DNA of 64,000 bases from a virus. Made by a program: the position numbers and the translations under genes. Each line of letters opens with the position of its first letter. The stretch's first letter is position 1. Location: the IMG/VR virus record IMGVR_UViG_3300050821_002540, positions 9,694-73,693 of that record; one strand, 5' to 3'. Shown one piece after another: positions 4,015-64,000 of this stretch. Below the pieces are notes generated by a model. The model made no database searches. It was not told where the DNA came from and worked only from the letters and a program-made list of their open reading frames with translations.

Positions 4015-4022
4015 GAGGCGAA

Positions 4023-6281: not shown

Positions 6282-6300
6282 AACTCAGCTTTGCAAACCC

Positions 6301-7223: not shown

Positions 7224-8069
7224 ATGGAAACCACTCAGACAGTCCTGCTCAGCCATCTCCACCCGAACCCAGCCAACCCCCGCGTGGAAGCTGGGGATGT
7301 AACTGATCTTGCCCTTTCAATCAGGGAACAGGGCATAGTACATGACATCCTTGTCCGTCCCTCTCCTGAATTTGGAGTGGGCCACTTCGTAATTGAGGAT
7401 GGATTCCGGCGCTGGGTGGCGGCCGAGGGTAACGCGAGGATGGGGCTAGGTCCTGAGACAGTTCAGGTACGCATCCGGTCGCTGAAGCCAGGCGAGAATT
7501 ATGCCGTGCGCGAGGTTGTTACATCACTCGTAACAACAATCCATCGTACTGACCTCAGGGCAATGGAGAAGGCACACGCATTCGAGGCCCTGATGAGGGA
7601 GACCGGCAAGAACCAGTCGGAAGTTGCCAGGATGATTGGCGTGAATTCCAGTACGGTAGGTCGGTACCTTTCACTTCTGGAGCTAGCGCCACAGGCACAG
7701 AAACGAGTGTCCGATGGAACACTCAGCGTAGAGGACGCAATAGATGCGGTTATTAAGCATCGAGCAAAGGCAAGGAAGGACAAGGGACAGGCTGCAGTTG
7801 ACCCTGGCTGGGAGCCACTCTACCTCGCGAAGACGCACCCTCTTGCAAAGAAGGCTCGAACAATGTGCGATGCCAGGGAGCATAATAATCGCCGTCGCCT
7901 AGATGGCGTAGCCTGCGGGCAGTGCTTCGAGACTGTTATACGTCAGGACCAGAGCACAGTAGACAGGATGGAGTACAATGAGGCTTTCAAGAATGCCGGA
8001 CTCAGCGTCCCATTCACCGCTCCAATCTTCCTGACCGGCGAGGATGCCAGCAAGAATGGACAGCCATGA
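7224..8069 (+). CDS. parB: ParB/RepB/Spo0J-family protein
   Basis: PNPANPR, LALSIREQGIVHDILVRP, DGFRRW (GxRR), then HTH QSEVARMIGVNSSTVGRYL. Confidence 0.9.
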   Translation: METTQTVLLSHLHPNPANPRVEAGDVTDLALSIREQGIVHDILVRPSPEFGVGHFVIEDGFRRWVAAEGNARMGLGPETVQVRIRSLKPGENYAVREVVTSLVTTIHRTDLRAMEKAHAFEALMRETGKNQSEVARMIGVNSSTVGRYLSLLELAPQAQKRVSDGTLSVEDAIDAVIKHRAKARKDKGQAAVDPGWEPLYLAKTHPLAKKARTMCDAREHNNRRRLDGVACGQCFETVIRQDQSTVDRMEYNEAFKNAGLSVPFTAPIFLTGEDASKNGQP

Positions 8070-8196
8070 GGCCGCACAGGTTTAATCCTGACCAGCGCGT
8101 CTCGACTGGTGAGATTTGCGTGTGCGGAGGGTCAAGAAACTACCGGGCACATCAGCCTTGGTGGTGGCTCATTCTGAACAGGAAGAAGTGGTGGAG

Positions 8197-9003
8197 ATGA
8201 AGGACAACGTATACATCGTGACGCGGGACCGGCTCGACAACCTGGAGAAGATCATACCACGCTGGCTGGAACAGTACTTCTATGTCACACTGGTAATCGA
8301 ACATTCCGAGTACATGAAGCACGATGCCCTCATCCGTGGCATGGGCGTTTATGATGATATTGCAATAATCAGCCCAAAGGCGGAAAATAAGGGCATCGGT
8401 CATGCCCGGAAGTATGCAGTTACAAATGCCTGCCTTCGCGGGCTGCGGTCATTTATTATGTCTGATGATGATCTCCGTCCGCACAAGGACTCGGTGATGG
8501 CCGACCTGGTAAAAGAAGCTGAAAAGCCAAATGTCCTTGGCATCGGGGCGACAAGGCCGCTACATGACAGGTTCTCGCACAACATGACGAGGGACCGGGA
8601 TGATGTCATTATATGTCCTGGTGGCTGGGGCATGCAGGTCTTTGCGCTGAACGTCAGGAACACAGTCGATGTCGGCAACTTCAACCCTCGCCTTGACTGC
8701 TGGGGCGAGGATCACGAGCTGATGCGTGACGGGATTGTTTGTGGCTTCCCCTGGCTCGTACACTGTGGAGTGAAGTGTGAGCCTATCGGGGTGCGCTATG
8801 ATCCTGGTGGCCTACACTCGTACATCGGCAAGGGTAACAGGTCAGAGCGCGAGTTGGAGTGTCGTAAGCTCATCTATGAGCGCTGGGGGAATTACGTAAG
8901 CAAGCCTGACAAGAGGCCGCGTACAGCATGGGCCAGAATGATGGATGAATACATTCCTAACTGGCGTAGCAAGTCAGCAATCCACGGCGGTGAATGGCAG
9001 TAG
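8197..9003 (+). CDS. TET-associated-type (TAGT/GREB1-like) GT-A glycosyltransferase
   Basis: VYIVTRDR; GIGHARKY; FIMSDDD; GEDHEL; adjacent to ParB. Confidence 0.65.
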   Translation: MKDNVYIVTRDRLDNLEKIIPRWLEQYFYVTLVIEHSEYMKHDALIRGMGVYDDIAIISPKAENKGIGHARKYAVTNACLRGLRSFIMSDDDLRPHKDSVMADLVKEAEKPNVLGIGATRPLHDRFSHNMTRDRDDVIICPGGWGMQVFALNVRNTVDVGNFNPRLDCWGEDHELMRDGIVCGFPWLVHCGVKCEPIGVRYDPGGLHSYIGKGNRSERELECRKLIYERWGNYVSKPDKRPRTAWARMMDEYIPNWRSKSAIHGGEWQ

Positions 9004-17805: not shown

Positions 17806-18615
17806 GTGAAGGTAATCGTCATTGGGTGCGGACCCGCAGGACTCGCGGCTGCTCACGCTGCTGTAGGGCTGGGTGCAGAGGTACGTGTAATAGCACCAAA
17901 GAAGATGACTCCGCAGAACGGTCCGGTAACGATACAGAATCCAATCCCTGGCATTTCAGTAGACCATCCTGACGGTTACATTCGCCAGCTAGTGGTCGGT
18001 GGCTCAATACTTGACTACAGACTGAAATTGTATGGTGATGTTAACGTCAACATCAACGGTAACATCATGCGTCCCGGCTACGACGCATGGCAGGTCAGGG
18101 CTGCCTACTACAAGATGTGGGACCTGTACTCCTGGATGGTCGAAGATGGAATGGTAGCGCCCGGAGACATTCAATGGCTAGTTCGTGATAGTGACCTGGT
18201 AGTCTGCTCAGCTCCAGCAAAAAGCCTGTGCTACCAGGATTGCGACAAGCTACTTGCCCGCGATCAGGAATGTCATGAGTTCCGGAGCGTGCCTATCGCC
18301 CTCAAGTTCAGCACAAGCTATCCGAACCAGCCGGAAAATACCGTAATATACAATGCCCGAAAGGATGAGCCATGGGTGAGGAGTAGCCTCATTTTTGGTG
18401 TGGGGGTAACCGACTACAAGGTTGAGGACTGTCCTAACCCTGACCTGATAATCCAGAAGCCACTAGGCACCGACTGTGACTGTCACCCAAAGGTGCTTCG
18501 GGTAGGCCGGTATGGCAAGTGGCACAACTTGTCATGGATCGACAGCGCATACTCAGAAACTCGCGAGTCTTTGTTGTCAATGATGCACCAGCAAGAATGG
18601 AGTTCTGTTGTCTAG
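17806..18615 (+). CDS. FAD/NAD(P)-binding oxidoreductase
   Basis: Rossmann motif VIVIGCGPAGLAAA; C-terminal GRYGKW. Confidence 0.8.
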   Translation: MKVIVIGCGPAGLAAAHAAVGLGAEVRVIAPKKMTPQNGPVTIQNPIPGISVDHPDGYIRQLVVGGSILDYRLKLYGDVNVNINGNIMRPGYDAWQVRAAYYKMWDLYSWMVEDGMVAPGDIQWLVRDSDLVVCSAPAKSLCYQDCDKLLARDQECHEFRSVPIALKFSTSYPNQPENTVIYNARKDEPWVRSSLIFGVGVTDYKVEDCPNPDLIIQKPLGTDCDCHPKVLRVGRYGKWHNLSWIDSAYSETRESLLSMMHQQEWSSVV

Positions 18616-18731
18616 CCTGTATGAGGTAGAGACAATCGCAACAACAACGGAAATTGTCGAGGCTGAGTCAGAGAAGGAGGCAATAGACAAGGTAGAGGCT
18701 CGCGGCCTGACGGTAACAGGAGCCAGGAAGC

Positions 18732-18761
18732 TAGAGCCGCAGGACCCTGATACGCTATAAT
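18732..18761 (+). promoter_or_regulatory. Phage promoter TAGAGC-N18-TATAAT
   Basis: Family member upstream of the thyX-like gene. Confidence 0.55.
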
Positions 18762-18781
18762 CGAGGTAGGAGGGAATCGTA

Positions 18782-19990
18782 ATGGCAACTCAGAAGCCCG
18801 ATGGTAGCTGGGACATCAGCGATGAGGAAGCTCGCCAGATCAACGAAATCTCAGAAGCCGAGTCACAGCAACGTCACGATCAGTACGTGAGGAACAACAT
18901 GGACGATCCGCTCGACCTTGTATTCAGGTCGATAGTACACAACCACACGCGTAGTGATGGATGTGGCGTAAACTGCCCAATGTACCTGAAATTCAATCAC
19001 GATAAGACTCACGTCACGGGGTGCGGTCCTGGCTGTGTGTCATGGTTCTACCTATCGCCTCAAGTTGAAGAGGCAACCTTCCTGTCAGAACCTCCAGAAG
19101 AGCAGACCAGGGAGGTGGTCAGGTGGGCGGATGAGGCAATGTTCGTTGCCAAGCCGCTTACACCAGACACAGATGGACAGCTTAGGCCGGAAGTTACAAT
19201 CATTCATATGACGGCCGACCCGCTCCGGGTAATGGCGGCCGCAGCACAGATGTATGAGGGCGATCCCGTCTATAGCCCAAATGACATACCTCGCCGCCTA
19301 GCTGAAGAATGGCTCAGGAAGACTCTTGCCCATAATTATCCGGCACCTCTTGAATTTGTCGATATCCACTTCATGATCAGGAACGTTACCAGGGCATTTA
19401 CACACCAGATGGTCCGACAGAGGCAGGCGGTGTACATTCAGGAATCGCTACGCTTCGCCGTCAAGGAGAATGCCGCAATGGAGGTTGTAATGCCTCCTAG
19501 CATCTCACATCTGTCAATCGATGATCCACGGCGTGTAGAATGGGAGAAGGCAGTTAGGGAGATTGGTGACTCATACAATGCACTTATCAATACGGGTATT
19601 CCGGCCGAGGATGCCCGTGGCCTACTCCCTACCAACATTGGGACCAGTCTCCATTACAAGACAAACCTGCGCATGCTCCGGGAGCACTCAGGGAACCGGC
19701 TGTGCTCCCAGGCCCAGCACGAGTGGAAGCTAGTATGGGGCGAGTTCATCAAGGCCATACTCAGCTACGGCCCGGCCAGTCAGAGGTGGCAGCAGAAGCT
19801 CATCGCGAGTATGTTCAAGCCGATCTGCTACCAGACTGGCAAGTGTGAGTACCCGCTCCCAATGGGACGGTACTGCGCCATCCGTGACATGGTAGATGCC
19901 CACCACTACGCCGGTGACACGCCTGAGTCATGGACTGACATCAACCCGCTCGTCCTCCTGCATCCAGAGGTGGCTCGTCGTGCCCAGTGA
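18782..19990 (+). CDS. thyX: ThyX-like flavin-dependent thymidylate synthase with N-terminal extension
   Basis: VTRAFTHQMVRQR..QESLRF; GIPAEDARGLLP; NLR...RLC..AQ.EW; canonical RHR appears as RQR. Confidence 0.85.
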   Translation: MATQKPDGSWDISDEEARQINEISEAESQQRHDQYVRNNMDDPLDLVFRSIVHNHTRSDGCGVNCPMYLKFNHDKTHVTGCGPGCVSWFYLSPQVEEATFLSEPPEEQTREVVRWADEAMFVAKPLTPDTDGQLRPEVTIIHMTADPLRVMAAAAQMYEGDPVYSPNDIPRRLAEEWLRKTLAHNYPAPLEFVDIHFMIRNVTRAFTHQMVRQRQAVYIQESLRFAVKENAAMEVVMPPSISHLSIDDPRRVEWEKAVREIGDSYNALINTGIPAEDARGLLPTNIGTSLHYKTNLRMLREHSGNRLCSQAQHEWKLVWGEFIKAILSYGPASQRWQQKLIASMFKPICYQTGKCEYPLPMGRYCAIRDMVDAHHYAGDTPESWTDINPLVLLHPEVARRAQ

Positions 19991-20705
19991 ATGTAGACTG
20001 TCATATCCACATCCATCACATACTGTTCTTGGCCCAAATCCATTTATGTGCCCTGGAATACCCTACCCGGACGCAACATCATCTAATATCCCAGTCTACT
20101 CGTGCGGCCAGGGTGCCACTCACGATAAGCACACTTACGAGAACGACGGCACCAAGTGGCTGTGTCTAGGTATTCATGAACACCCAGAACTAGATGACAG
20201 TATCATTAAGGCGCGACTCCATGTGAAGTTGTGCAATCTTGGCTATGGCCATAAGGCACACCGTTCCACCTTTGAGGGCCAGAATGTAATGTGTCCAGGT
20301 CGCGAGCACACCATCGAGACAACGCCAGAATTCGATGAAGGAAAAATGAACACAACCCGAGATGCCGCGGCAGACTTCATGACTGAATGTGGCCTGGACC
20401 CCACTCCGGACGCTATAGGACAGCTCGCGGAAGTGTTCCTGCCATGCCTGAAGATTATGTGTGAGCGGGGGTATGACCCTGACGGCCTTACATGGAAAGC
20501 CGAGGGCTGGCGCGGCATGGTATGGAAGGCACGCGACAAGATGACGCGACTGTGGTTTCATGCCTGGGGGAATGGGAATGACCACCCAGACTCAGCAGTC
20601 GACTGCATCAATTACCTCGGCTTCTACATAAGGCTGAGGAATGGAATCGGTAGTGAGTGGGGCGACCGTGGCGCCCCAGGAGGTGTTAGTGAAGATCTAC
20701 ATTGA
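19980..20705 (+). CDS. Nmad1/DUF1599-like nucleotide-modification-associated protein with N-terminal Cys/His repeats
   Basis: C-terminal W...G..G...ARDK..RL...DSAVDCINY pattern; a second RBS-linked ATG at 20346. Confidence 0.55.
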   Translation: MPSECRLSYPHPSHTVLGPNPFMCPGIPYPDATSSNIPVYSCGQGATHDKHTYENDGTKWLCLGIHEHPELDDSIIKARLHVKLCNLGYGHKAHRSTFEGQNVMCPGREHTIETTPEFDEGKMNTTRDAAADFMTECGLDPTPDAIGQLAEVFLPCLKIMCERGYDPDGLTWKAEGWRGMVWKARDKMTRLWFHAWGNGNDHPDSAVDCINYLGFYIRLRNGIGSEWGDRGAPGGVSEDLH

Positions 20706-20794
20706 CCTGGATGATCAGTGGGTCGGTAGGTACCGTGGGCCAAACCATAACTATGTATGTATTATACCGTGCATAGTCATAAGGTGGAAGAGGC

Positions 20795-21730
20795 GTGTCG
20801 ACAAGAATTAGGTTCGTCAACTTGCACCACCACACCACGTTCAGTACCGGTGATGGGTACCGTCTTCCTGTGATACATGTGGCCCGTGCAGCTGAGCTTG
20901 GGTACGGGGCGGCTACTGTCACCGAGCACGGAAATGTAAGCAGCTTCTTTCAGCACGAGAAGGCATGTCTGAAGGCAGGCATCAAGCCCATCTTTGGACT
21001 GGAGGCATACTGTGGACCTGTTGATCTTGAACGACGGTCGGCCTGGAAATATCACCTCACCATCCTGGCCAGTGATCAGGAGGGATATCGAAGCCTCAAT
21101 AAGATCGTCACACAGAGTTACAAGGACTTCTATAGCAAGCCTACGGTTTCAGGACAGTCGCTGGCAACAAACTCGCGAGGATTGGTTGCTCTTTCAGGAT
21201 GTAGCGGCTCTCTGCTCGCGTGTACCCTCCTTGGAGGAAAGGGTATTCCTGAACCTGAAGAGCCTGATATGGGAGCTGCCGAGGATGTCGCCCGGAGATT
21301 CTCCGATCTGTTCGGAGATCGTTATTTCCTTGAAATACAGCCCTTCTATGAGCTTGAGCGAACTATCGCAATCAACACTGCATACGATAAGCTCTCCAAG
21401 ACCACCGGAGTCCGGCTCGTCGTTACGAATGACGTTCACTACCCACGGATGGAGGATGCTGAAATGCAGGCTGTACTTCACGCCACCCACCGAGGAAAGC
21501 ATAGCGTGGATGACGTCATGCGCGAGTGGAACTACAAGGTGCCATGTACCCTACCCGAGTCAGACAAGGCACTGGCTGACCGACTCATCAAGACTGGCCT
21601 TACCAAGTACCAGGCTTATGCTGCTATCGAGACAAGCGCAGAGATAGCCGAGACCTGTAACGTAACTCTCCCAAAGGCAGAGCGCCTCCACTACCCAATA
21701 TCAGAAGAGGATCAGGAGTCATGGACATAA
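20795..21730 (+). CDS. dnaE: DNA polymerase III alpha, stand-alone PHP domain
   Basis: FVNLHHHTTFS..DG, TEHGN, GIKPIFGLEAY, HLTILA, LSGC, TNDVHY. Confidence 0.92.
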   Translation: MSTRIRFVNLHHHTTFSTGDGYRLPVIHVARAAELGYGAATVTEHGNVSSFFQHEKACLKAGIKPIFGLEAYCGPVDLERRSAWKYHLTILASDQEGYRSLNKIVTQSYKDFYSKPTVSGQSLATNSRGLVALSGCSGSLLACTLLGGKGIPEPEEPDMGAAEDVARRFSDLFGDRYFLEIQPFYELERTIAINTAYDKLSKTTGVRLVVTNDVHYPRMEDAEMQAVLHATHRGKHSVDDVMREWNYKVPCTLPESDKALADRLIKTGLTKYQAYAAIETSAEIAETCNVTLPKAERLHYPISEEDQESWT

Positions 21731-22071
21731 GCGGGATGATAGAGGCGATTAAGGAAATTGATGACTGGCTCGACAATGGAGCGAGTAGCGAGTATAAGGA
21801 ACAGCCACTAGCTCAGGACTGGGCCAGGATAAGTAAGCTGGCTGAAGAGGTAGGTGAGGCAATATCAGAATTTATACTGGCTACCGGACAGAACCCACGT
21901 AAGGGCAAGGACCTGCTAGCTGAGGAACGTATGCTTCTTGAGATGGCTGACGTTGTATGGGGAGGGGTACTGTGCATACAACACTTCACCAAGAACTGGT
22001 GGAGAACAGAAGATATACTCAGGGGGAAGCTCGAAGCACTACATGCACGGGTGCCAGATGAAGAAGCCTGA
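21721..22071 (+). CDS. MazG-like nucleotide pyrophosphohydrolase
   Basis: KLAEEVGE...EMADV acidic motifs. Confidence 0.75.
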   Translation: MDISGMIEAIKEIDDWLDNGASSEYKEQPLAQDWARISKLAEEVGEAISEFILATGQNPRKGKDLLAEERMLLEMADVVWGGVLCIQHFTKNWWRTEDILRGKLEALHARVPDEEA

Positions 22072-25333: not shown

Positions 25334-25693
25334 ATGATGAAGCTTTACCTGGCAGGACCGATGCGCGGCTACAAGAACCAGAACAGGGAGGCATTCGAGA
25401 CAGCATGCGCAAAGCTTCGCGACATGCAGCATGAGGTGTTTAATCCGGTCGAGCTAGAAGACAGGCTTAGGTCGGTATGGTCAAAGAAGCCAATACTCCG
25501 CGAGCTCATGGGCATGGACTGCAAGTACATCTGTGAGGAAGCGGAGGGGGTAGTGTGCCTACCAGGATGGCCAGGATCAAATGGAGCACTAGCCGAGGTT
25601 CATCTGGCATGGGCAATCGGCATACCAGTGTATGAGTATGAGATGTTCTCCACCAACAGGATCAGGGAAGTTAAGGGTGTCCCTAATGGCTGA
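25334..25693 (+). CDS. Nucleoside 2-deoxyribosyltransferase-like (DUF4406)
   Basis: YLAGPM.G...N..AF; NP; LPGW..S.GA..E..LA...G. Confidence 0.8.
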   Translation: MMKLYLAGPMRGYKNQNREAFETACAKLRDMQHEVFNPVELEDRLRSVWSKKPILRELMGMDCKYICEEAEGVVCLPGWPGSNGALAEVHLAWAIGIPVYEYEMFSTNRIREVKGVPNG

Positions 25694-26422
25694 CAGGAAA
25701 AGGCTACTGGAGAACGGGGAATGGGCAACTCCCTTCTACTCCACCGGCCGCGTCGATGTGGTGTCAGGGGAAGTATACAATGATATGAAAGAGTCGGCCA
25801 GGTCAATGAAGCTTGGTCTTACAGAACCAATAGTTGAGGAGGGCGAAAAGGACGGACACAGAGGCCGGATCATAACGGTGAGATGTGGGGTGCTTGATGA
25901 TAGCTGAGAAGCAGCTTGTCGGCGATGCAGACTACATGGATGTGACAACCTTTGCCCTCCATATGACCCACCGGCACCTTGACTCACTTGGAGGGCTTAC
26001 GCGACTTTCTGACAGGCTTGATGACTATATGGAAGAGTGCTGGCGAATCTTCCATGACCGGCTACACGCAACCCGAGTTGACCTGGAGCATGAGCATGCG
26101 CGTAATGATAGCTAGCGTTATACTGAACGTACCAAATGCAATGACCGAGTCAAATGTAATCGAGGAACTGTATGTATCGATTGCATTCGGGAACCCAAAG
26201 ATAGTGATTCAGTACGTCGGGGAGGATGACTCCGGTCCAGCGGTCTAGGATCGATTCTAAGGCTCTGTGCCCCCGGAGGGTATACCGGAGTACCCCCGAC
26301 CCCCTTTCATGGCCTCTACGGCTCTCTCCGGGCCGTGCATAGGTTTGCACTAAGCTCCCCTACCGGCGAACCGGCCGGTAGGGAGTGATTATAACGGCCA
26401 GATAACGATATTCGTTACCGTC

Positions 26423-26452
26423 TAGTAACCGGCCCCCTGCGGGGAGTAGCGT
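26423..26452 (+). promoter_or_regulatory. Putative promoter TAGTAA-N18-TAGCGT for the Rpf/NlpC operon
   Basis: Family-like hexamers; CA/TG-free over 26440-26479. Confidence 0.45.
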
Positions 26453-26524
26453 CGTTCGGGCTAGGCGACTACGGCCCCTCATGTACCAGCCGGGGCCGGT
26501 CGCACCTACAATGTTAGGACACCA

Positions 26525-27301: not shown

Positions 27302-28172
27302 GACAATTGCGCTAATCCTCGCGCCACTAGCAGTCATCGCTGGCCTGTTCCTGGCGCCAGCTACTTCCGCACTCGCCTCGCCTGTTGTTCCGGCCACTGT
27401 GTCTGCCATCCTCCCGGCTCCGCACGGCCTACATGTAACCCATCTTAGTGTGGGCCGGGCCGATCTAGCCTGGGATGCAGTACCGGGTGCTCGGGTGTAT
27501 GAGCTACGCATCGAGGGTGCCACACAATATGACCATGTACTCAGGCCAGGGCAGCGGTCGGCCTATGCACTACTCAGGCCGGGTAGGTACTGGGCGAATG
27601 TACGGGCCGGTAGCTCGTCACGTGATGTTCACGGACACTGGTCCACAACAATTCACTTCACGATGCCTAGCGCCTGTTCACGAGCATGCCGTGCCGTACA
27701 CTACGCATATGACCAGATCGGATGCCCGTACGTGTACGGCGCGACTGGCCCGTGCGGCAATGGCTTCGACTGTTCCGGCCTGGTAATGTCTGCCTGGTAT
27801 TACGCTGGCGTGTCCCTCCCCCGCACTACATGGAGTATGTGGGCTGGCCTCCAGCATATCTCGCGAAGTTCTCTCCAGCCTGGAGACCTAGTGTTTGGTA
27901 ATGGCTTCGGCCATGTGATGATCTACGTAGGCAGCGGCTACGTCATCCAGGCGGAACATACCGGAACCAACATCATGAAGTCCTCCCTGTCGTACGTCGG
28001 CACCATAGATGGATATGCGAGGGTGTTATGCGGACATACATGGAAGACTGCAGAGACTGTGGTGGAGCAGGACTGCAGCCGGGGGCATCAGGAATGGTGC
28101 CATGCCAGACGTGCCACGGCGTACCCAGGCCGACGAAAGCCTAGCTTTCAGCCGCCCGGTAGGGTAGGCTAG
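27291..28172 (+). CDS. Secreted NlpC/P60 peptidoglycan endopeptidase with Fn3-like domain
   Basis: Signal peptide; PYVYGA.GP..GFDCSGLV; LPRT; LQPGDLVF..GHV.IY. Confidence 0.9.
   Translation: MAAKTIALILAPLAVIAGLFLAPATSALASPVVPATVSAILPAPHGLHVTHLSVGRADLAWDAVPGARVYELRIEGATQYDHVLRPGQRSAYALLRPGRYWANVRAGSSSRDVHGHWSTTIHFTMPSACSRACRAVHYAYDQIGCPYVYGATGPCGNGFDCSGLVMSAWYYAGVSLPRTTWSMWAGLQHISRSSLQPGDLVFGNGFGHVMIYVGSGYVIQAEHTGTNIMKSSLSYVGTIDGYARVLCGHTWKTAETVVEQDCSRGHQEWCHARRATAYPGRRKPSFQPPGRVG
28142..28170 (+). promoter_or_regulatory. Phage promoter TAGCTT-N17-TAGGCT
   Basis: Hexamers identical to 1539 and 28865. Confidence 0.7.
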
Positions 28173-28224
28173 AAGCCTAGGGTACGAAACGTCCAGTCGC
28201 CTAGATGGAACGGAGGTGAGTTGC

Positions 28225-28326
28225 ATGAACAAGGGAGGAACGCTTCACGCAGAGGCGCACGGCCCGTCGCACGGAGTCACGGAGTTCCCGTGGATCACTC
28301 TGGTCGAGGGCGAGCTGCCCAAGTAA
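28225..28326 (+). CDS. 33-aa small ORF (MNKGGTLHAEAHG...)
   Basis: Strong RBS GGAGGTGA; downstream of promoter 28142; not in the ORF track. Confidence 0.5.
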   Translation: MNKGGTLHAEAHGPSHGVTEFPWITLVEGELPK

Positions 28327-28560
28327 AGTAACAAACTGTCCGGCGCCATCAACTACAACCATAATTAAATACTGGGGTTCCAGGCGAGCCAGGACTGGAT
28401 GTAAAATACAGTGGCTTAATACCGTGCCCCTTCAAAATTAAATAACCGGCGGCCGATCCTCAGTGAGTTAGAGGTGGATACACCGTTTCACCGGGAGTAG
28501 AACTGGAGAGCTACTCAGTCCGGAAGCAGAGTGAGGATGGACGGGCCACCCGCCGCCGTC

Positions 28561-29778: not shown

Positions 29779-30063
29779 GGCCGGGGCTGTAACCCCGAAG
29801 TAGTCGTCATCGATGGCGACAACGGCCCCGGTGCCCTGCCACTGACAAGTGACCAGCTGGGTATCGGGGCCTGCCCATCCCGTGGTATCAATGTCGTAAT
29901 GGTATGCTCCGGGCCCATCATTAGTTGGTCCTACAATTGTATTGACTGAACCGGCTCCAGCCCGGTACTTGAATGTTATTGTTGTTGGGTTAGTCGGCAC
30001 TCCAGCCGTGTTAACAAATGCGGCCGACGACCTAACCATTGAGCCGCTCGTGTACAGGTTCAT
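29773..30063 (-). CDS. Small virion or tail-associated protein
   Basis: End of tail operon; beta-rich with G.Y.Y.....G...QW.GTG pattern. Confidence 0.55.
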   Translation of the reverse strand: MNLYTSGSMVRSSAAFVNTAGVPTNPTTITFKYRAGAGSVNTIVGPTNDGPGAYHYDIDTTGWAGPDTQLVTCQWQGTGAVVAIDDDYFGVTAPAL

Positions 30064-32033
30064 TCCGAGTTCCTTATCGTCACCGGGCTGATGTTCCTAT
30101 TGCTGACCGATACAGACGCAGATGAATTGCTCACTTCGACTGATCCTGCTAGTGACTGAGTTACCGTCACCTGTCCAGGGAACTGCGATGCCCCGAGTGT
30201 AAAGACAAATACGTCAGCCCCAGCTCCGCTATCCAGGAACGCCACCGGCATGCTGTATGTCAGCAGTTCAGTGCCTGAGCCACTATCAGACAGAACTACT
30301 GGGATGTTGAATAGCAGGGACTCGGTACTGACACCAGAGTCAGTCAGGGCAACCAGTGAGGACAGGCCAAGTACGTCTGTCCCAGCACCAGAGTCAGCTA
30401 GCAGTACAGAGCTAGTGATCTTCAGGCTATCGGTGCCTGTGCCAGAGTCAGCTAGGACAATTGGTGTTACCGACAGTACTGAGAGTGTGTCAGTACCAGA
30501 GCCAGAGTCAGTGAGCGCAACTGGCTGGGCAGATACAATTGTAAGTACGTCAGTGCCAGTGCCGGAGTCCGCTAGCCCTGGGATCATGCCGAGCGCGTCG
30601 GTACCCGTTCCGGCGTCCGCGAACGGTACCCCCGCCAGGACGCCTAGAACGTCCGTAGCCGCGCCGGAATCCCCTAGGGAGGGGAGGATACCTAGCGCGT
30701 CCGTTCCCGTCCCTACGTCGCTTATAGAGACGCCTACGGCTACTGCGAAAACGTCCGTCCCCGCCCCGGTATCGGACATGGTGACCGGGGTAACACTGAG
30801 CACGGCCAGGCTGTCAGTACCAGTACCTGAGTCAGTGAGGCCAGGCATAACACCGAGCGTATCGGTACCAGCACCAGTATCCGTCAGGGCCGTCGGCTGG
30901 ACAACAGCCAGCACATCTGTGCCAGCCCCAGAATCAGCTAGTGACACTACAGAGGTGACCGCAAATGTCTCTGTGCCAGAGCCAGAGTCGGTGAGCGGCG
31001 TCGGCTGAACAATCGCGAGGGCTTCTGTGCCTGACCCGGAGTCAGTAAGTGCTACTGGTGTGACTGACAGCACAGCCAGGGAGTCGGTGCCTGTACCCGA
31101 GTCTGTTAGCCCTGGCATGACGCCCAGGGCATCTGTCCCAGAACCAGAGTCCGTAAGCGCTGTCGGCTGGGTTATAGCCAGGACTTCTGTCCCGGTACCG
31201 GAGTCAGCTAGCGGTACTGTTGAGGTTACTGCCAGTGTCTCGGTACCGGATCCAGAGTCGGAAAGCTGTATCGCCGAGGAAGCAGCCGTTACCTGAACCG
31301 GAAGGAACTGCTGGTGATGGAACTTTTCAGTCCATGTCCTACCAGGCATTACCTGCTGTGGCAACTGGATTGTTACAGGACCACTAGATAGCTTGAACGC
31401 TACAAGTAGCAGGCCCCATGTAGCGGCGCCAGAGATGGCCCATGACAGGGACTCAGTCCCACCCGTACTATTGCCATAGGCAGTAGCTAGCTGGGCAGCA
31501 CTATTTGAACCTGAGTTCTTTAGTGGTGTGTATCCAGTCTCTGTATATGTAGTGGAGTAACCGGCATCACCAACAGAGGCAAGCAGGAACTCATTTGCTG
31601 CCGTAGAGCTGTATGCTGTACCGCCAGTTATGGTAGCCGGGGAGGCAGTACCAGTATTGTGTCCGGGAGACCCATCAAGCATTGACGTTGTATTACCAGC
31701 AAGCAGTCCTGACACTTCAAGCAGTACCGGGACCGACCCAAAGTTTGTCCCATTAGTGCAAGTTATTAGTGGTCCAGTTCCGACATCACCTGATGGGGTA
31801 TCCATTGCCCAGATCGAGATACCGCCCTGAGCCGACTGGTAGGCAAGCAGCCCTACCTGCGTAAAGCTATTGAGCGCTGCATCCTTAACTGACGTTGGGG
31901 CGGTAGAGCTGCTTGAGTCCAGGGACACTATGGCAATAAGCTTGGACCCGGATGTAAGCGTGCCATATGTAGCCGTACAGTTTCCCGATCCCTGTACTGT
32001 ACCCAGGACAGACTGGAGGACCGTGTAGGCCAT
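30060..32033 (-). CDS. Ser/Thr/Gly-rich repeat fibre-like structural protein
   Basis: About 20 repeats of L[TA]DSG[ST]GT[DE].L. Confidence 0.7.
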   Translation of the reverse strand: MAYTVLQSVLGTVQGSGNCTATYGTLTSGSKLIAIVSLDSSSSTAPTSVKDAALNSFTQVGLLAYQSAQGGISIWAMDTPSGDVGTGPLITCTNGTNFGSVPVLLEVSGLLAGNTTSMLDGSPGHNTGTASPATITGGTAYSSTAANEFLLASVGDAGYSTTYTETGYTPLKNSGSNSAAQLATAYGNSTGGTESLSWAISGAATWGLLLVAFKLSSGPVTIQLPQQVMPGRTWTEKFHHQQFLPVQVTAASSAIQLSDSGSGTETLAVTSTVPLADSGTGTEVLAITQPTALTDSGSGTDALGVMPGLTDSGTGTDSLAVLSVTPVALTDSGSGTEALAIVQPTPLTDSGSGTETFAVTSVVSLADSGAGTDVLAVVQPTALTDTGAGTDTLGVMPGLTDSGTGTDSLAVLSVTPVTMSDTGAGTDVFAVAVGVSISDVGTGTDALGILPSLGDSGAATDVLGVLAGVPFADAGTGTDALGMIPGLADSGTGTDVLTIVSAQPVALTDSGSGTDTLSVLSVTPIVLADSGTGTDSLKITSSVLLADSGAGTDVLGLSSLVALTDSGVSTESLLFNIPVVLSDSGSGTELLTYSMPVAFLDSGAGADVFVFTLGASQFPGQVTVTQSLAGSVEVSNSSASVSVSNRNISPVTIRNSE

Positions 32034-57519: not shown

Positions 57520-58299
57520 CCTCAGTAACAGGAGTGGCCTGCCTCTGCTCTTGCTCTTTGGCTATCCTAGCGCCAGTAAGAAGTCGCGCCACCTGGCTGT
57601 CAGGAACACGCTGCCAATTCTGTCGATATGGCCGGTTCTCAAGATCATACTTCTGGGCAGCCTTAACCAGATCCTCAATCTTCACGAGCTGCTCCTGGTC
57701 CTGCGCGCGAGGTTCCGGCCCCGGAACTTCCTCTTGAGCACAAGCCTATTGCACAGCCGGCACTGGAATGAGCAAGCTGTCCCAAGGTTCCTGTTGCTGG
57801 CCTCCTGGGCCCAATGACGGTGCCTAGCCAGGATGCACATAAAGTACTCCATAACCATAACAGTCCAGCCCTACTAGCATGAATGGAAACCCATCCAGTG
57901 TCCTTATCGCCCGGAGTAACCGGAAAGGCAACGTAACTGCCAGGAACCGTAAAGTCACAGACAAAGCCAGGCTCAGCGCCACATTCCCCGCACCGGTCAA
58001 AGATGACCTCATCAAAAGTCGCAATGTCCTCGGTCTCCATAAATCGCTCACCGCAAAGCTCAGGATTAGGGTGAGAAAGCCACTTACAAGGAGGCCGGAA
58101 AAGGTCGAATGGTAGAAGGATGCTGCGGAGAAAAGCCCAAATGAGGCCCAAGTATAGGCGTGATCAACGAAGTTACTGACTGCAGGCCGGGATCGGGCCA
58201 GAATGGTCCCTAGAACAGCCTGCATCGCAATTTCGAGCATTTTTGCCGCTCTTGCGCGTGCACGGCCTGCATCCTGGAGCCAGTACTCGGTCGGGGCCG

Positions 58300-58482
58300 T
58301 CATACGGCACCTGACAGCATCCAGGCGGAAAATCCGCCAAATCCCCATGCCCATGCCGTTGCACTGAAGATGTCAGCGCCCGCCGTCGTGATTGCCGCGA
58401 GGAAGAAGCATACGGCCCCTACCACAAGCAAGATCCTGCTCACAGTAACCCTCGTTGCCTGTCTATTGTTCGGAGTAGTCAT
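58300..58482 (-). CDS. Small membrane protein
   Basis: Two hydrophobic helices; RBS GGAGG. Confidence 0.55.
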   Translation of the reverse strand: MTTPNNRQATRVTVSRILLVVGAVCFFLAAITTAGADIFSATAWAWGFGGFSAWMLSGAV

Positions 58483-58874
58483 GACCCCTCCTTGTTTGTC
58501 AAGGTTAGGATGTACCTCTGAACGTTCATAAGCATATCTAGGCCAAGGACCATCCCCGGCCCCTCAGGAACCTCTTCGGCAATCTGTAGGGCTGTAGTGG
58601 CAAAGGCAACTGCAATGTTTCGCCAGCTCCCCTCCGGAAGATGGCCATAGCCAAACGAGCTAAGAGCCTCCTCAGAATCACTGCCCTTGGGCCGCCCGTT
58701 CGTGTTCTCCATATACGTCCATCCGTGAGTGCAGCCTGGCCCATGAACCCTTATCCCTATATTGCTTACAAAGCAAGTCTCGACAGGCTCATGAAGCCAT
58801 GGCGCCGTACAATGCCCAGGATCACGAGAGCACTCAATTAGGTGCGCCTTAACAAGCTGTCCCTGGAGGCTCAT
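58479..58874 (-). CDS. Hypothetical protein
   Basis: Coupled to terminase; F.Y.HLP motif. Confidence 0.55.
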   Translation of the reverse strand: MSLQGQLVKAHLIECSRDPGHCTAPWLHEPVETCFVSNIGIRVHGPGCTHGWTYMENTNGRPKGSDSEEALSSFGYGHLPEGSWRNIAVAFATTALQIAEEVPEGPGMVLGLDMLMNVQRYILTLTNKEGS

Positions 58875-60250
58875 GCTATAAAGCTCCTAAAGATCACCCG
58901 GATGCCAAAGTCCTTGTACGCAACCATATACCGCATCGCGTCGCATCCGTGGTCATTCTCCTTGGCTGGCTGTTCCTTTGTCTTCTTGTCATCCCAGACA
59001 TACCCAGGAATCTCGTCAATGGTGCTAGCGGGCTTGCCAGCATCAATAAGCTCCGGGTCCGGGGCAGCATTAGCATTCCTCAGGAAGTACAGCCGTGGCC
59101 TATTGTCCTTCTGGAGGCGCATCATCTTCTGGGTGGCGTCAATGCCCTCAAGGACGCTCTTGTGGGCTGGCTCAGTCCCCATCCCCAGCTCACGCTCAAG
59201 GACGGCCCGCCCCTCAGCATCATGGTCACAGATCAGTGCACGGGGCCGTGGCTCGGTCCAGGCACCCCGGCTGTCCAGCACACAGGTCAGGATCTTGCGT
59301 GCATGCTGGTCAACGGTCTTCTGGGTCCGGTACAGCTCCCGGTACAGGTACAGCCGCCCATCCGGGTCCTCAGCCCAGCACTGGAGCACGAACGGGTTCG
59401 TAAACCCAAAGTCAACAGCCCAGTACCTCGGCCACGCCATAGGCACGCCGCTTGGGTCAACATGAGTTGCCGTTGTCTCAATTTCGTCAATAATGTGGAC
59501 GGTCGGGCTGAACTCCTCAAAGATGACGCCCTCGGCCGCAACCCACTTGCCCAGACGCAGCCGCTTGTGCCGAACCCCAGTCAGGTTGTCAAGCTTGCCG
59601 ATGTAGTCGGCACCCCGCGCTGTCTTCGTGCCATCCCTGTTAAACAGCATCGGGTTGTCCTCATGCGTGGTGTCAAACATCTTCGTTGCACCACGGTCAC
59701 ACCGCTTCTTGAGCCAGTGGTCTGGGGCCTGTGGGTTACAGTCACCCATCAGCTGCTGAAAGCTCACCTTCCAGTTCCTCAGCCGGGTGGTCAGGCTCTC
59801 CCAGTCATTCTCGGCAAGCTCGGTCGCTTCCTGGACATAGATCACGTCATACTCAGCGGACATGATCTTGCTTACCTTGTCCAGCCCACCGATCGCAACA
59901 ACGCTGCCATTCTTGTAGCGGTAGCTCGGCGGCTCCTGGGCGCTGCCTCCATAGTAGGTTACGTCGCCAGCATCAATGGCCTCCTTGGCCACAAAGTGCC
60001 TCCACGTCACCAGCGCCGTGCTGCTCAGGGAGGTAGCCGCCTTGCGGGCAATCAGGCCACGCATGCCAGGGTTGAGCAGGCACATGACATGGAGCTTCTC
60101 CATACACGCCCTGCTCTTCCCCGTCCCTGCAGGTCCAGACAACAGGAGCTCAGGCTCACGGCAGGACAGGATTGCCTTACAGCTACCGCGCGGGGTGTAG
60201 TGGTGCCTAACCCGTTCTGGCTCCCGGCTCCTGGCCTGCGTGGTGGTCAT
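58871..60250 (-). CDS. terL: Terminase large subunit (PBSX/Terminase_6-like)
   Basis: Walker A SGPAGTGKS; YVQEATE; DCNP..P.HW; AVDFGFTNP; NDHGCDAMRY. Confidence 0.95.
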   Translation of the reverse strand: MTTTQARSREPERVRHHYTPRGSCKAILSCREPELLLSGPAGTGKSRACMEKLHVMCLLNPGMRGLIARKAATSLSSTALVTWRHFVAKEAIDAGDVTYYGGSAQEPPSYRYKNGSVVAIGGLDKVSKIMSAEYDVIYVQEATELAENDWESLTTRLRNWKVSFQQLMGDCNPQAPDHWLKKRCDRGATKMFDTTHEDNPMLFNRDGTKTARGADYIGKLDNLTGVRHKRLRLGKWVAAEGVIFEEFSPTVHIIDEIETTATHVDPSGVPMAWPRYWAVDFGFTNPFVLQCWAEDPDGRLYLYRELYRTQKTVDQHARKILTCVLDSRGAWTEPRPRALICDHDAEGRAVLERELGMGTEPAHKSVLEGIDATQKMMRLQKDNRPRLYFLRNANAAPDPELIDAGKPASTIDEIPGYVWDDKKTKEQPAKENDHGCDAMRYMVAYKDFGIRVIFRSFIA

Positions 60251-60943
60251 GCCGGTGGCATCCCAACTTCATTTTCCCAGGTAACGCCATGCCTCCGAGT
60301 AAACTCATCAAACTCATTCGGCGTAACGTCTCGCCAGACGGTGCCCTCGGCAATGTCCACAGAATCAGGTGCAGTAATCACCTCAGGTGGGCCATGCCTC
60401 TTTGCCTCCCAGTCAGCCCGTACCCTGGCAAGTTCCTCGGGTGTCAGCAGGTCATTGCTGCGGTCAACAATGTTTCCTGGAACGTCATCACCCATTCGGA
60501 CATACTGGAGCCATGGGTGCTCATGCGCGAGTGTCTCAAGGACCCTCGTGCGCACATCCGCCAGTAGGCCCTCCTTGTGCATTGCCGAGTCAACAGCAAC
60601 GGCAACCGAGCCGGTCAGGGGCAAACGCATTGCAGGAGGCAGGCGCTTCTCTTCTGGCTGCTCCCACTTAGCGCACCGGGGGCAGCGGCGCGGCACATAA
60701 TGCTCGGCCCAGTAGGCCTGGCACGCATGGCACACCATCATGCTTGCGCCCTCGGTCTCGCACATGAGCAGGAAGCTGAAATGCCCGGTACATCCAGGAA
60801 GTCTTGCCTGACACTGTTCTGTACTGGCCTGGCTCGGGAGAAACGTGTTCCTGTTCATAGCTGGGTCACCATCGCAGCAAGCAGTACGCCAGCCATCATG
60901 GCGGCAAAAGCAACGGTCACGATTGTCGCTGTCGCTGTCAGAT

Positions 60944-61210
60944 TCATGGTGCCGCCGGGGTGTTCGGGGTTGCGTACACGCCAAGGGCACTAGCCACAGC
61001 CACGACGTACGGAAGCCATCCGCCTGCGGAGCCTCCCGTGTTCTTCTCAACAAGCACGGTAATCAGTAGCCCAGCAATTGCCGCAAAGGCTTTTGAGTAC
61101 TTGCCCAGGTTCAGTGGAGCTTTTGGTGGCTGTTCCGGAATCTGTGGGAGTGGGTTGTCTGCTGGCATGTCGCGTCCTTCAGGGGTGGCAGGGTAGGCGG
61201 TCATCTTCAT
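60944..61210 (-). CDS. Putative holin
   Basis: Two TM helices; Y.KA.AA..G ... ALGVY..PN signature of actinophage holins. Confidence 0.65.
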   Translation of the reverse strand: MKMTAYPATPEGRDMPADNPLPQIPEQPPKAPLNLGKYSKAFAAIAGLLITVLVEKNTGGSAGGWLPYVVAVASALGVYATPNTPAAP

Positions 61211-61755
61211 GTCATGTCGCCTTGTTCGTCAGAGTCAATAACATACTGGACTCCGAGGCCCTGGCGGGCCGGTGGCGCTGTCCGCTGTGGGTAGGCCCCA
61301 AGCTCATCAGCCGCCTGCCGGTACAGGTCCAGCCTAGCCCGGTACAGGTCGCGATGGGCGCGGCTCCATCCAAGCCCCTGCTCACGCCACTCATTCAGCT
61401 GGGCGTCAATGTCATCAATGGCCTGCTGGTACTCCGCGAGCCGGTTCTGCTTCCTGGAGATCCACATACCGGCCGTCGTAATGTCCAGGGTGCCCTCAAG
61501 GGCATGGGCAACTTCCTGGATCTCTTCCTGGTGGCGCTCCTGGAACACCCTCACCTGGATCGCCGTCAGCCCGTACAATGGCGCGAGGCTGGTGGGTTCC
61601 CATTCACCCATAGCAAGATCCCTGATAAGGGCGAGCTTCTGACGTCCCCGGATGTCTACTGGTAGTCTTGTCGGGAGGGTAGCGGGCACGTCCGTGGATG
61701 GCACTGCCCTGAGCGGCACTTTCCGCCCTGGGCCTCTGCTCTTTCCATCGGTCAT
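61207..61755 (-). CDS. Putative terminase small subunit
   Basis: Helical protein upstream of TerL; WI..K..RLA.YQ, A.ELG..P.R and V.YVI pattern. Confidence 0.6.
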   Translation of the reverse strand: MTDGKSRGPGRKVPLRAVPSTDVPATLPTRLPVDIRGRQKLALIRDLAMGEWEPTSLAPLYGLTAIQVRVFQERHQEEIQEVAHALEGTLDITTAGMWISRKQNRLAEYQQAIDDIDAQLNEWREQGLGWSRAHRDLYRARLDLYRQAADELGAYPQRTAPPARQGLGVQYVIDSDEQGDMT

Positions 61756-61780
61756 GCCCGCCACCTGCTCCCTGCGGGCA

Positions 61781-61809
61781 ACTATACCCTACTCCGGGGC
61801 CGTGCGCTA
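61781..61809 (-). promoter_or_regulatory. Promoter TAGCGC-N17-TATAGT on the minus strand for the packaging/structural operon
   Basis: Reverse-complement family member about 25 bp upstream of the terS start. Confidence 0.6.
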
Positions 61810-62519
61810 GTCCCCGGCTGGTGGCTTAGTACTGCGCCTACGCGCGGGCGCGGGCGTGCCCGCGCGAGGCTGTGCCTTCCTGGGTGCACGGACACGCTTC
61901 GGGGGTGGGGGCGGGGGTGGTGGGCTGGGCATAGTCCTGGGGACTGGTAGTGCCAGCTGCCCAAAGCCCAGGAGGGCCTGGCAGGGACAGGCCCGGCAGA
62001 TGCACCTGCCCTTTGGCCTCTTGTTCTCGGGCTTGTCGCGTTCTTCCTCGGACAGCCTGGCCCGGAGTAGGATGCTGCCCTCATTGTGCCAGCAGTCAGC
62101 ACACATGCACCAGCATGCTGTCATGCCCTCATCCCTGGTCGTTGTAATGCACAGGCTGTCATGGTGCGGCATTACTTCCTCCTGACATCTATGTGCGTAA
62201 CGTCAAGTGACTTGAACTGGGGGAATGTTCCCATTTCGCCGGGACCCGGAAGAATCCTGGTGAGTCGTGCCTCGATGGCACTGACCACCTGTGAGCCTGT
62301 ATTTCCGGTAACCCTTACCCTGACCTCGATCGTAGCCTCATACTCATACAGAGCTGGCATGGAGCCTCCTCATGTGGCGGCGGGCGGTCTTCTCGTGGCG
62401 GAAGCGCCTGTGCGCTGTCACGCACTGTGGACAGTACCAGTATGTACCGCCCTTCTGTGGCTGGTAGTACAGGAAGTCAACGAGGCGCTTCATCATGACC
62501 GGTGTCCATGCTCCCCCGG

Positions 62520-62729
62520 TCATGACTGCTCCAGGAGGCTTTCCCTGGGGACGCCCAGGACCTGCGCGAGCTGGTGCAGTGAGCCTGGCTGGGGAGTGGC
62601 CTCGCCAGTGAGCCACTTACCGAGGGTCCTGCTTTCCACCCCGAGCTTGTCTATCAGGGTGACGGGTGAGATGTTCTTCCTTCGCATGACCTGGAACAAG
62701 ATCTCCGGGTCAATGTACTGCTGGGGCAT
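62520..62729 (-). CDS. XRE/Cro-like HTH regulator
   Basis: S...L..KLGV...TL.KW..GE..P....L..LA.VLGV. Confidence 0.85.
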   Translation of the reverse strand: MPQQYIDPEILFQVMRRKNISPVTLIDKLGVESRTLGKWLTGEATPQPGSLHQLAQVLGVPRESLLEQS

Positions 62730-63185
62730 TAGCTGTTCCTTTCCCGGTCCTGGAACAGGATCCAGAGCTTCCCGTCCTCACTGACATGGATGCCAGTGAC
62801 CAGGCCGCCCGCCGCCGTCGGGGCCAGATTGGTAACCTCAGGAGTGCCCTCTGGGTTGTAGAACGCTGCTCCCCACATGGCCTCCATGAGCTCCTTGTTG
62901 TTCACCGGAAGAACCTCCAGAGAAGGAAGAGAAATACTACTGCGCCTATGAAGGTGGTGACGAGGACGAATGCCTTGCCCCATTTATCCAGCTTGTCCAT
63001 GTTCCTGTCCTGCTGGCTTCGTGACGATGACATTGAAGCCTCCATCCTCTCCATTGCACGGTTCCTGATGTACCCTGTGACCCTTGCCTGCCCTGCGGGC
63101 CGCTGATGCTACCCTCTTAACTGTCGCGTCTGCCTCTGCCCTGGTCCTGACCCAGGTGCGGATTACCTCAGTGCGGTTGTTGTCC

Positions 63186-63359
63186 TTACTGGCGATCCGG
63201 GTCAAGGAGCACCTCCTTCTCATACTCGGCTGCCTTGTCCTGGGCATCCTGAAGATCGTCTGGGTCAAGGCGGACAAGATCTACCTGTCCCCAGTAACGG
63301 TCATAGCAGGACAGGTAGCCAGCAAGGAAGTCCTTACCAGCGTTCGATGTGGGCTCCAT
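63186..63359 (-). CDS. 57-aa hypothetical protein, first gene of the - arm
   Basis: RBS AAGGAGG; ATG 63359 to TAA 63186; not in the ORF track. Confidence 0.6.
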   Translation of the reverse strand: MEPTSNAGKDFLAGYLSCYDRYWGQVDLVRLDPDDLQDAQDKAAEYEKEVLLDPDRQ

Positions 63360-63383
63360 GGAGCCTCCTTCCCTACGCTCCCG

Positions 63384-63413
63384 AGTATACCGCCTTAAAG
63401 GCGGAAACGCCTA
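63384..63413 (-). promoter_or_regulatory. Promoter TAGGCG-N18-TATACT on the minus strand
   Basis: Family member; CA/TG-free over 63361-63418. Confidence 0.65.
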
Positions 63414-63768
63414 GTCGTCATGACGGATGTGAGATTCATAACGACGCGGAGCGTCGGATTGCAAGACACTTTCATAACGTGTGGCAGGCGGAAAGAAGAG
63501 TGGGGAGGGAGGGGCCGAAAATCGCGGGACTTTCGGGGGCCTCCTAGGCGGGCCGGAGAGGCCCCGTAGGCGGCCCGAACGGGCCGACCCTACCTCGGGT
63601 ACCGAGCCGGGGGCCTACGCGCCCCGTAGGGGCCTTCTCGCCCCGTCTAGAGGGTACTCCGCCCCGTCCGCCGCGACCGGGCCGAAGCCGGGTCGCCTAC
63701 GCCTAGTCGCTACGCTCCGTAGCCGAGCGGTAATTTAAAGTTACTGTGTAGACGACCGTAGACGAGTA

Positions 63769-63797
63769 TAGGTTCTAGGCCCTTAGGCGGTTAGGCT
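63769..63797 (+). promoter_or_regulatory. Promoter TAGGTT-N17-TAGGCT
   Basis: Family member; followed by hairpin and RBS AAGGAGGCGA. Confidence 0.7.
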
Positions 63798-63855
63798 AGG
63801 GACTAGGCCCGCCCCCGATCGGAACGGGGGCGGCTACCCGAAGGAGGCGAGTCCG

Positions 63856-64000
63856 ATCGAGACTCGTAACGGAACCCCTATCGCGGACGTTAACGCCGCG
63901 ACCGCCCCTACCCCCGAGCGGAGCGTTAACGACGCTCCGGCCGCGTCGAAGCCGACCGCGTCGAAGCCGACCGCGTCGAAGCCGACCGCGACGAAGCCGA
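63856..64000 (+). CDS. Putative ATC-initiated ORF, truncated by the window end (IETRNGTPIADVNAATAPTPERSVNDAPAASKPTASKPT...)
   Basis: Phage consensus RBS 8 nt upstream; open frame with GC3 bias; in-frame TAG at 63784 and no ATG/GTG/TTG after it. Confidence 0.45.
   Translation, partial: METRNGTPIADVNAATAPTPERSVNDAPAASKPTASKPTASKPTATKP
63941..64000 (+). repeat. 15-bp tandem repeat CCGCGTCGAAGCCGA x4 (ASKPT repeats)
   Basis: Three exact copies plus one with a T>A change. Confidence 0.9.

Follow-up and report, generated by a model that had tools for sequence, protein, structure and literature searches.

Covalent DNA marks set in a TG context have been described in phages. In the Pbunaviruses F8 and 14-1 a sugar-derived hypermodified thymidine was reported to replace roughly one T in four, 'in a TG motif', on the basis of resistance to enzymes with TG-containing sites and of LC-MS (Yee et al., 2025 preprint; PMC12191111). 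The ParB-dependent phage thymine dioxygenase 5mYOX176 oxidizes T to 5hmU after replication with a preference for NTG and then NTA, and glycosyltransferases and ParB are the commonest gene neighbours (O'Toole et al.; PMC13229309). GpC-directed methylation, TET oxidation and glycosylation in phages were described by Burke et al. (PMC8256090). According to the summary of PMC4838386 given in PMC11550810, bacterial RNA polymerase is blocked at promoters by bulky groups in the major groove. The first-pass annotation of the DNA described here had taken as its premises that phage hypermodifications can be placed according to sequence context and that bulky adducts can hinder DNA-binding proteins; the TG-context thymidines bear out the first (PMC12191111, PMC13229309) and the block to RNA polymerase the second (PMC11550810). 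This literature makes a mechanism based on a CA/TG-directed mark chemically and biologically plausible.

The window, the whole stretch of 64,000 nucleotides that was analysed, corresponds to bases 9694-73693 of a 73,693-bp IMG/VR contig (L001; genome G000), and positions are those of the window unless given as contig bases. Near its end lies a DNA island purged of the same TG step that is marked in F8. The phage also shares with F8 homologs of its DnaE-type polymerase (36% identity), ThyX-like protein (31%) and helicase. The two differ in that there is chemical evidence of the modification for F8, whereas this uncultured soil phage is known from sequence alone. F8 also has no CA/TG-free island, with a longest free run of 88 bp in a low-complexity gene, and no homolog of the phage's TAGT (TET-associated glycosyltransferase) among the tblastn hits. 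As F8 is TG-marked and has no island, a TG-context mark alone does not force a purge. The resemblance to the 5mYOX system lies in two adjacent genes:

7224-8069, plus strand: ParB-like protein with an N-terminal domain and an HTH (HTH_ParB, E=4e-12), directly upstream of the glycosyltransferase
8197-9003, plus strand: TAGT-family (GT-A fold) glycosyltransferase, the sole recognisable candidate DNA-modifying enzyme

However, neither a 5mYOX nor a TET/JBP is detectable in this phage, and its ParB has an HTH DNA-binding domain that the 5mYOX-associated ParBs lack. The setting also departs from that for which the TAGT family is named, as no TET/JBP neighbourhood is found in this genome or in the related genomes G006-G010.

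An island almost free of CA/TG

63503-64000: window part of the CA/TG-free island; beyond the contig junction the island goes on as far as contig base 445 (L001:98-445)
63745-63748: the only two TG of the window part, both in CTGTG; a -35-like hexamer follows about 21 nt downstream

The last 498 bp of the window (63503-64000) had been noted for holding no CA and two TG while being rich in CG, TA and CTAG, and both observations are confirmed. Against 0 CA and 2 TG, 53 CA/TG are expected from the base composition of the stretch and 73 from the genome rate (binomial P from 7e-22 to 1e-31), while CG (78 vs 59 expected), TA (30 vs 11.6) and CTAG (6 vs 1.4) are enriched. The island is larger than had been reported. 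Joined across the contig junction it measures 846 bp and contains 5 CA/TG (P about 1e-50), which divide it into free runs of 244, 303, 105, 79 and 115 bp; its GC content is 69%, with observed/expected ratios (O/E) of 1.38 for CG and 2.58 for TA. The sliding-window comparison proposed in the first-pass annotation for the genome and its relatives places the island at the extreme of this genome, where 500-bp windows outside it hold 73±8 CA/TG with a minimum of 48, and reveals depletion in relatives as well (see below). Of the nine other dinucleotide classes, those of comparable frequency have free runs of at most 69 bp in this genome. Chance and base composition as the cause are ruled out by the observed and expected counts, the other dinucleotide classes and the binomial P values.

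The two contig ends are joined by a 97-bp overlap that sits in a 15-bp tandem repeat within the island gene, and contigs assembled from the source run (Logan) also break at this repeat, so that the contig ends are treated as an assembly junction and not as a proven physical end. A copy of bases 63473-63900 in a second soil metagenome is identical, with zero variants. In soil metatranscriptome runs, short contigs match parts of the structural genes exactly (window 58000-63300). No nucleotide match to the island region was found among GenBank phages, and literature searches returned no description of such CA/TG-free islands. A foreign origin of the island is ruled out, as its promoter and ribosome-binding site (RBS) are of the phage's own type and we know of no genome that lacks CA/TG. 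An explanation through Lsr2 and AT-richness is likewise ruled out by the 2.6-fold enrichment of TA in the island.

A complete transcription unit within the island

63769-63797, plus strand: candidate promoter TAGGTT-N17-TAGGCT, predicted from its consensus match to the phage's promoter family
63807-63834, plus strand: GC-rich hairpin in the leader, separating promoter from RBS; other promoter modules have one as well
63843-63850, plus strand: RBS GGAGGCGA, an octamer that precedes about ten other genes in identical form
63856-64000, plus strand: start of the island gene, with ATC 5 nt past the RBS; a stop-to-stop ORF that runs to contig base 369, with a TAG stop at 370-372
63940-64000, plus strand: four 15-bp tandem repeats (KPTAS-type peptide repeat), where the assembly broke, giving the 97-bp end overlap
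63360-63419, minus strand: divergent promoter and leader of the structural operon, with -10-like GGTATACT, RBS and ATG at 63358-63360, forming a 60-bp CA/TG-free run of its own

The island combines some 300 bp of control DNA with a single complete transcription unit. It opens with approximately 260 bp that are GC-rich and carry short inverted motifs; the candidate promoter, a hairpin, the RBS, the ATC, the ORF and a terminator hairpin follow in this order. The promoter copy is without the TG that follows the -35 element in other copies of the family, and the RNA of 63798-63858 folds with -28.8 kcal/mol. No ATG, GTG or TTG occurs in frame in the ORF. The terminator hairpin is a perfect 14+14 palindrome (-48 kcal/mol, z = -4.3), and CA/TG-dense DNA resumes about 20 bp beyond it, which puts the 3' edge of the island where a transcription unit would end. 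The island had been thought to cover the divergent control region and the beginning of an early transcript; it extends over the control DNA and the whole of an early-looking unit.

The unit is self-contained in the manner of the early regions of T5 and T7, having a family-type promoter, a leader hairpin, an RBS, an ORF and a terminator, and its organization suggests that it is expressed early. In T5 (first-step-transfer region) and T7 (leading ~850 bp), the early DNA that enters first is free of sites found in the remainder of the genome, and it is expressed while that remainder is still unprotected. The island resembles this DNA as a short, self-contained and target-free early region. It differs in that specific restriction sites are missing there whereas a whole dinucleotide is missing here, and in that the contig ends here are an assembly junction.

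Purging elsewhere in the genome

626-28900, plus strand; 63391, minus strand; contig 3567-8316: copies of the promoter-leader family
30588-30744: second CA/TG-free stretch, 157 bp with one CA/TG (runs of 49 and 108 bp), inside a tail-fibre-like gene (30060-32033, minus strand)
26269-26480: third, CA/TG-poor stretch of four consecutive runs of 38-42 bp, intergenic and upstream of lysis genes

The promoter-leader family has about eleven copies built as TAGCTT-TG-N15-TAGGCT, a variable GC-rich hairpin, CA, the RBS GGAGGCGA and ATG. The family has no TTGACA-type -35, and its leftover TG and CA stand at fixed positions. Taken together the eleven modules hold 38 CA/TG where 81±7 are expected, and CA/TG-free runs of at least 36 bp are mostly intergenic in this genome.

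The second stretch, in contrast to these intergenic runs, lies within a coding sequence. The tail-fibre-like gene carries about 20 LxDSGxGTDxL repeats, and identical repeats contain CA/TG outside 30588-30744 while using other codons inside it. A weak -10-like GGTATCCT is present on the minus strand of this stretch, for which no function was found. Counterparts of the third stretch occur beside the homologous gene in two related genomes, G007 and G009, as CA/TG-free runs of 175 and 154 bp.

Recoding of the island gene

Read from the ATC, the island protein has about 139 residues with no Met, Trp, Cys or His and a single Gln, whereas these five amino acids together make up 11% of residues genome-wide. 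Back-translation of the protein with the codon usage of the genome gives 47±5 CA/TG and never fewer than 29 in 20,000 trials, against 3 observed. The codons CTG, GTG, TCA, ACA, GCA and CCA, which account for 19-30% of their codon families genome-wide, are not used at all in the island gene, and the junctions at which a codon ending in T would meet G, or one ending in C would meet A, are avoided. The amino acid choice is matched in five database homologs (142-187 aa, with Met at the start), which contain no Trp, Cys, His or internal Met and keep the one conserved Gln; the closest of them, P0003, is 64% identical to the island protein. The protein combines a disordered half rich in Ala, Pro, Lys and Thr with a small four-helix domain, as seen in a low-confidence structure model (pLDDT 63) that has no significant match in the PDB. 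No Pfam family was found for it, a protein atlas search gave no usable match, and scans of viral contigs with two sequences and of metagenome contigs found no homologs.

Both CA and TG are removed, from coding DNA, non-coding DNA and codon junctions alike, and thus the rule acts on the double-stranded step. Motifs for cleavage at the RNA level are ruled out, since the purge is symmetric on both strands and covers untranscribed promoter DNA. Whatever its cause, a conserved gene with an ATC or ATT start and five avoided amino acids represents a constraint of the double helix that overrides the usual choices of the genetic code.

The loss of start codons raises the question of whether selection is for translational and transcriptional silence, that is, against NTG starts, the TTGACA -35 and the TGn extended -10. 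Every canonical start codon has TG as its last two bases, and the six frames of the island contain no such codon; the consensus -35 hexamer holds both TG and CA. However, silence leaves unexplained why the gene would sacrifice its own start codon, why CA/TG is kept out of codon junctions, why codons such as ACA, GCA, CCA and TCA, which would create no start, are shunned, and why a stretch inside the tail gene is purged. On this evidence silence is a very improbable cause.

Islands and weaker depletion in related records

Homologs of the island protein are found in CA/TG-poor DNA of related records. In G007 and G012, whose structural module differs from that of this phage, they lie inside CA/TG-free runs of 689 and 684 bp, respectively, and only ATT or ATC is available as a start behind the RBS. 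A homolog in record L073 (40% identity), detected only by a six-sequence profile, is located in a 1.2-kb stretch with a CA/TG O/E of 0.43, and a weak family member in G002 occupies the lowest point of a 5-kb zone with O/E of 0.53-0.86. The signature, lowered CA/TG with raised CG and TA, is identical in every genome with the island state. Between G007 and G012 the islands show at least 162 aligned differences plus indels and neither has gained a CA/TG, whereas an equal number of simulated random substitutions gives about 46 CA/TG with a minimum of 27 in 5,000 trials. A single hypermutation event is thereby excluded, and a continuing filter is indicated. The purge is maintained by selection, as codon choice has been reshaped and the homologous islands are conserved through divergence.

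The same comparison bears on the possibility that, in place of selection, mutation is biased locally and by sequence context. If C or A in CpA were deaminated again and again while the DNA is single-stranded, for instance, CA/TG would be converted into TA and CG. The transition products are enriched in the island (CG O/E 1.38, TA O/E 2.58), and its GC content of 69% is near the value to be reached by mainly CA/TG-to-CG conversion. Set against this are the sharp boundaries of the island, the 3' one at the terminator hairpin, the conservation of the protein (64% identity to P0003), and the change from ATG to ATC, which is a transversion. Further, we know of no deaminase that is specified in this way by the 3' neighbour, and a purge that outlasts at least 162 substitutions of all kinds between G007 and G012 requires a filter or a targeted process that is still at work. 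We consider such a bias the least probable of the readings discussed here.

Depletion also recurs at a fixed place in G001-G004, which form a lineage with common TerL and capsid. In each of these records the most CA/TG-depleted 500-bp windows are found 2-5 kb from TerL, just past the point where the structural operon begins, with an O/E of 0.50-0.62 compared to genome means of 1.07-1.12. This includes G003 and G004, which are without the glycosyltransferase and yet have their most depleted windows (O/E 0.56-0.62) at this syntenic place. The longest islands occur in phages with a TAGT-family glycosyltransferase. Free runs of at least 140 bp are present in 7 of 12 TAGT-bearing records and in none of 6 others (one-sided Fisher p=0.025, not phylogeny-corrected), an association that is only suggestive because the records are phylogenetically related. 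The control mycobacteriophage PLot, whose DnaE polymerase is 49% identical, has no CA/TG-free island.

The weaker depletion at the same place in relatives without the glycosyltransferase would be compatible with a reader on the host side. Here a defence system or enzyme of the host would target CA/TG steps in incoming DNA, or the many sites in which they occur, and the first unit would have been purged to survive until a phage counter-measure is made, much as in the site-free DNA with which T5 and T7 enter first. The self-contained, early-looking character of the unit also speaks for such a reader, and restriction pressure on the phage is clear (CCCGGG 0 vs 31 expected, CTCGAG 1 vs 18). On the other side, we know of no nuclease or defence system that reads a bare dinucleotide while sparing host DNA, the purge of one dinucleotide removes only about a third to a half of possible restriction sites, and the genome-wide depletion of promoters is left unexplained. 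A host-side reader is therefore possible but unlikely.

Two side observations concern the same set of records. The complete TAGT-bearing records G009 (L130-L133) and G010 (L134-L137) have genome-wide CA/TG O/E of 0.79 and 0.74 with raised TA, while the other records range from 1.03 to 1.21. A 150-aa protein with no family assignment (L001:5411-5863), 52-60% identical across G001-G003, G006-G011 and G013, is always encoded in the early region near the islands and spans both structural lineages.

Candidate modification genes

The glycosyltransferase at 8197-9003 matches Pfam TAGT (PF20691) with E=3e-4 and 21.1 bits, below the gathering cut-off of 27.5, and phrog_842 with E=5e-5. Its homologs at 40-63% identity carry PF20691, from which we infer its membership, and 27 of 30 members of the glycosyltransferase family match TAGT. 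The structure model (pLDDT 92) has GT-A matches in the PDB. By these resemblances the protein is a candidate tailoring enzyme of the DNA-base type, though its acceptor may be DNA, protein or a glycan. No TAGT homolog was found among 50,697 GenBank phage records, and the ParB-like gene upstream of the glycosyltransferase shows no consistent co-occurrence with it in relatives.

17806-22071 (plus strand) and 25337-25693: nucleotide-metabolism cluster, adjoining the split DnaE polymerase

The cluster encodes an FAD-binding protein, a ThyX-like protein, a PHP-domain protein upstream of the 753-aa DnaE, and a DUF4406/deoxyribosyltransferase-like protein, together with two further proteins labelled by the first reading only as Nmad1-like (conserved C-terminal 120 aa) and MazG-like (small). 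The ThyX-like protein (402 aa) is very divergent and has a 140-aa N-terminal extension, its best PDB ThyX match being at E=3e-6. The cluster is common to G002-G004 and G006-G010, and its gene content makes it a possible source of a non-canonical pyrimidine.

Searches for other parts of a modification pathway were negative. In this genome TET/JBP (PF12851) gave no match at E<=10 and the 2OG-oxygenase 2OG-FeII_Oxy_3 (PF13640) no match, and no TGT/DpdA, C5-methyltransferase or N6/N4-methyltransferase was found; TET/JBP was likewise not found in G006-G010. Pfam and PHROG comparisons of about 50 ORFs gave no match to a thymine dioxygenase-type enzyme, no 5mYOX was found next to the ParB-like gene, and PDB sequence searches with the uncharacterised proteins of 241 and 274 aa gave no informative match. 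No enzyme with a recognisable CA/TG-writing specificity was found in the genome.

Avoidance of restriction sites offers a further comparison, as an in-silico proxy for the protection of sites that contain TG. Palindromes of 6 bp that contain CA/TG are less avoided than those free of it in this genome (p=0.04), in 12 of 12 TAGT-bearing records (Wilcoxon p=2e-4) and in F8. The trend recurs in the controls without TAGT and in PLot, and it does not separate records with TAGT from those without.

Proposed avoidance of a CA/TG-directed mark

The best available explanation, which we advance tentatively, is avoidance: the phage would place a DNA mark at CA/TG, and the cassette and the promoters would have been purged so as to escape it. 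The purge is of the kind to be expected from a covalent modification, or from a cleavage, that depends on dinucleotide context. The infected cell would have to contain an agent for which each CA/TG step in duplex DNA is a target, the best candidate being a bulky, phage-made covalent hypermodification of a pyrimidine in TG/CA context, with the TAGT-family glycosyltransferase as candidate tailoring enzyme acting on a hydroxymethyl-pyrimidine. CA/TG-free DNA would then stay unmarked, and host RNA polymerase and DNA-binding proteins could use the island promoter even on fully marked virion DNA, so that the first gene would be transcribed from the unmarked island and its protein would act early. 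The other promoters of the phage would be partly purged for the same reason.

Avoidance of a mark is favoured by the restriction of extreme free runs to the CA/TG class and by the loss of the steps of both strands. It is also favoured by the recoding of the gene, the conserved islands of G007 and G012, the 3' boundary at the terminator, the depleted promoter modules, the TAGT-family enzyme and its association with long free runs, and the precedents in other phages. Against it stand G003 and G004, which keep a weaker depletion without the glycosyltransferase, F8, which has no island, the palindrome comparison, which does not set TAGT-bearing records apart, the sub-threshold Pfam score of the glycosyltransferase, and the in-gene stretch 30588-30744, which is unaccounted for. 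The proposal of a CA/TG mark with its target purged from the island originated in the first-pass annotation. The analysis supports it in part: the purge is symmetric and kept by selection, and the phage has a TAGT-family enzyme and a nucleotide module, whereas the writer was not found. The same annotation held that islands in related phages devoid of modification genes would favour another cause; in G003 and G004, where the glycosyltransferase is missing, depletion is present but weaker.

In a more detailed form the sugar mark would be TET-independent and placed at every CA/TG step. The divergent ThyX-like and Nmad1-like proteins would supply the hydroxymethyl-pyrimidine and the TAGT-family transferase would give the context, leaving a CpG-island-like unmarked unit whose product, an ATC-initiated pioneer factor free of Met, Trp, Cys and His, would let host machinery start on virion DNA that is otherwise unreadable. 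This version is decidedly unlikely to be correct.

The comparison with CpG islands can be made more generally. Vertebrate CpG islands are regulatory DNA whose dinucleotide content departs from that of bulk DNA through a dinucleotide-directed DNA mark. The phage island resembles them as regulatory DNA that deviates sharply from the bulk. The difference is that CpG islands keep the target in unmarked form, whereas the phage island has lost the target, and has done so by selection and not through mutational decay of the bulk. If avoidance of a mark is the correct explanation, plain sequence would reveal phages with a dinucleotide-directed mark, together with the target of the mark, without recourse to chemistry. 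It would further follow that the hindrance of host machinery by such marks is strong enough to have remodelled promoters and codon usage, the amino acids of a protein and even its start codon.

Stretches of opposite composition and avoided palindromes

Directly past the island, contig bases 446-850 form a patch of opposite composition, with a CA/TG O/E of 1.32, a CG O/E of 0.15 and a CpG-free run of 189 bp. The patch is built from CAGACAG, CAGGCA, CAGCCAG and TCTAGTTCTCC repeats and adjoins a Prim-Pol gene, and bases 28001-28450 of G002 (L070) are its counterpart (O/E 1.77). The patch may serve as an origin of replication or as an array of sites for a binding protein.

Over the whole contig, the strong avoidance of GC-rich 6-bp palindromes extends beyond CCCGGG and CTCGAG to CCGCGG (2 observed vs 16 expected), GTCGAC (4 vs 17.5), ACCGGT (7 vs 28) and GGGCCC (7 vs 26), which indicates classical restriction pressure from the host.
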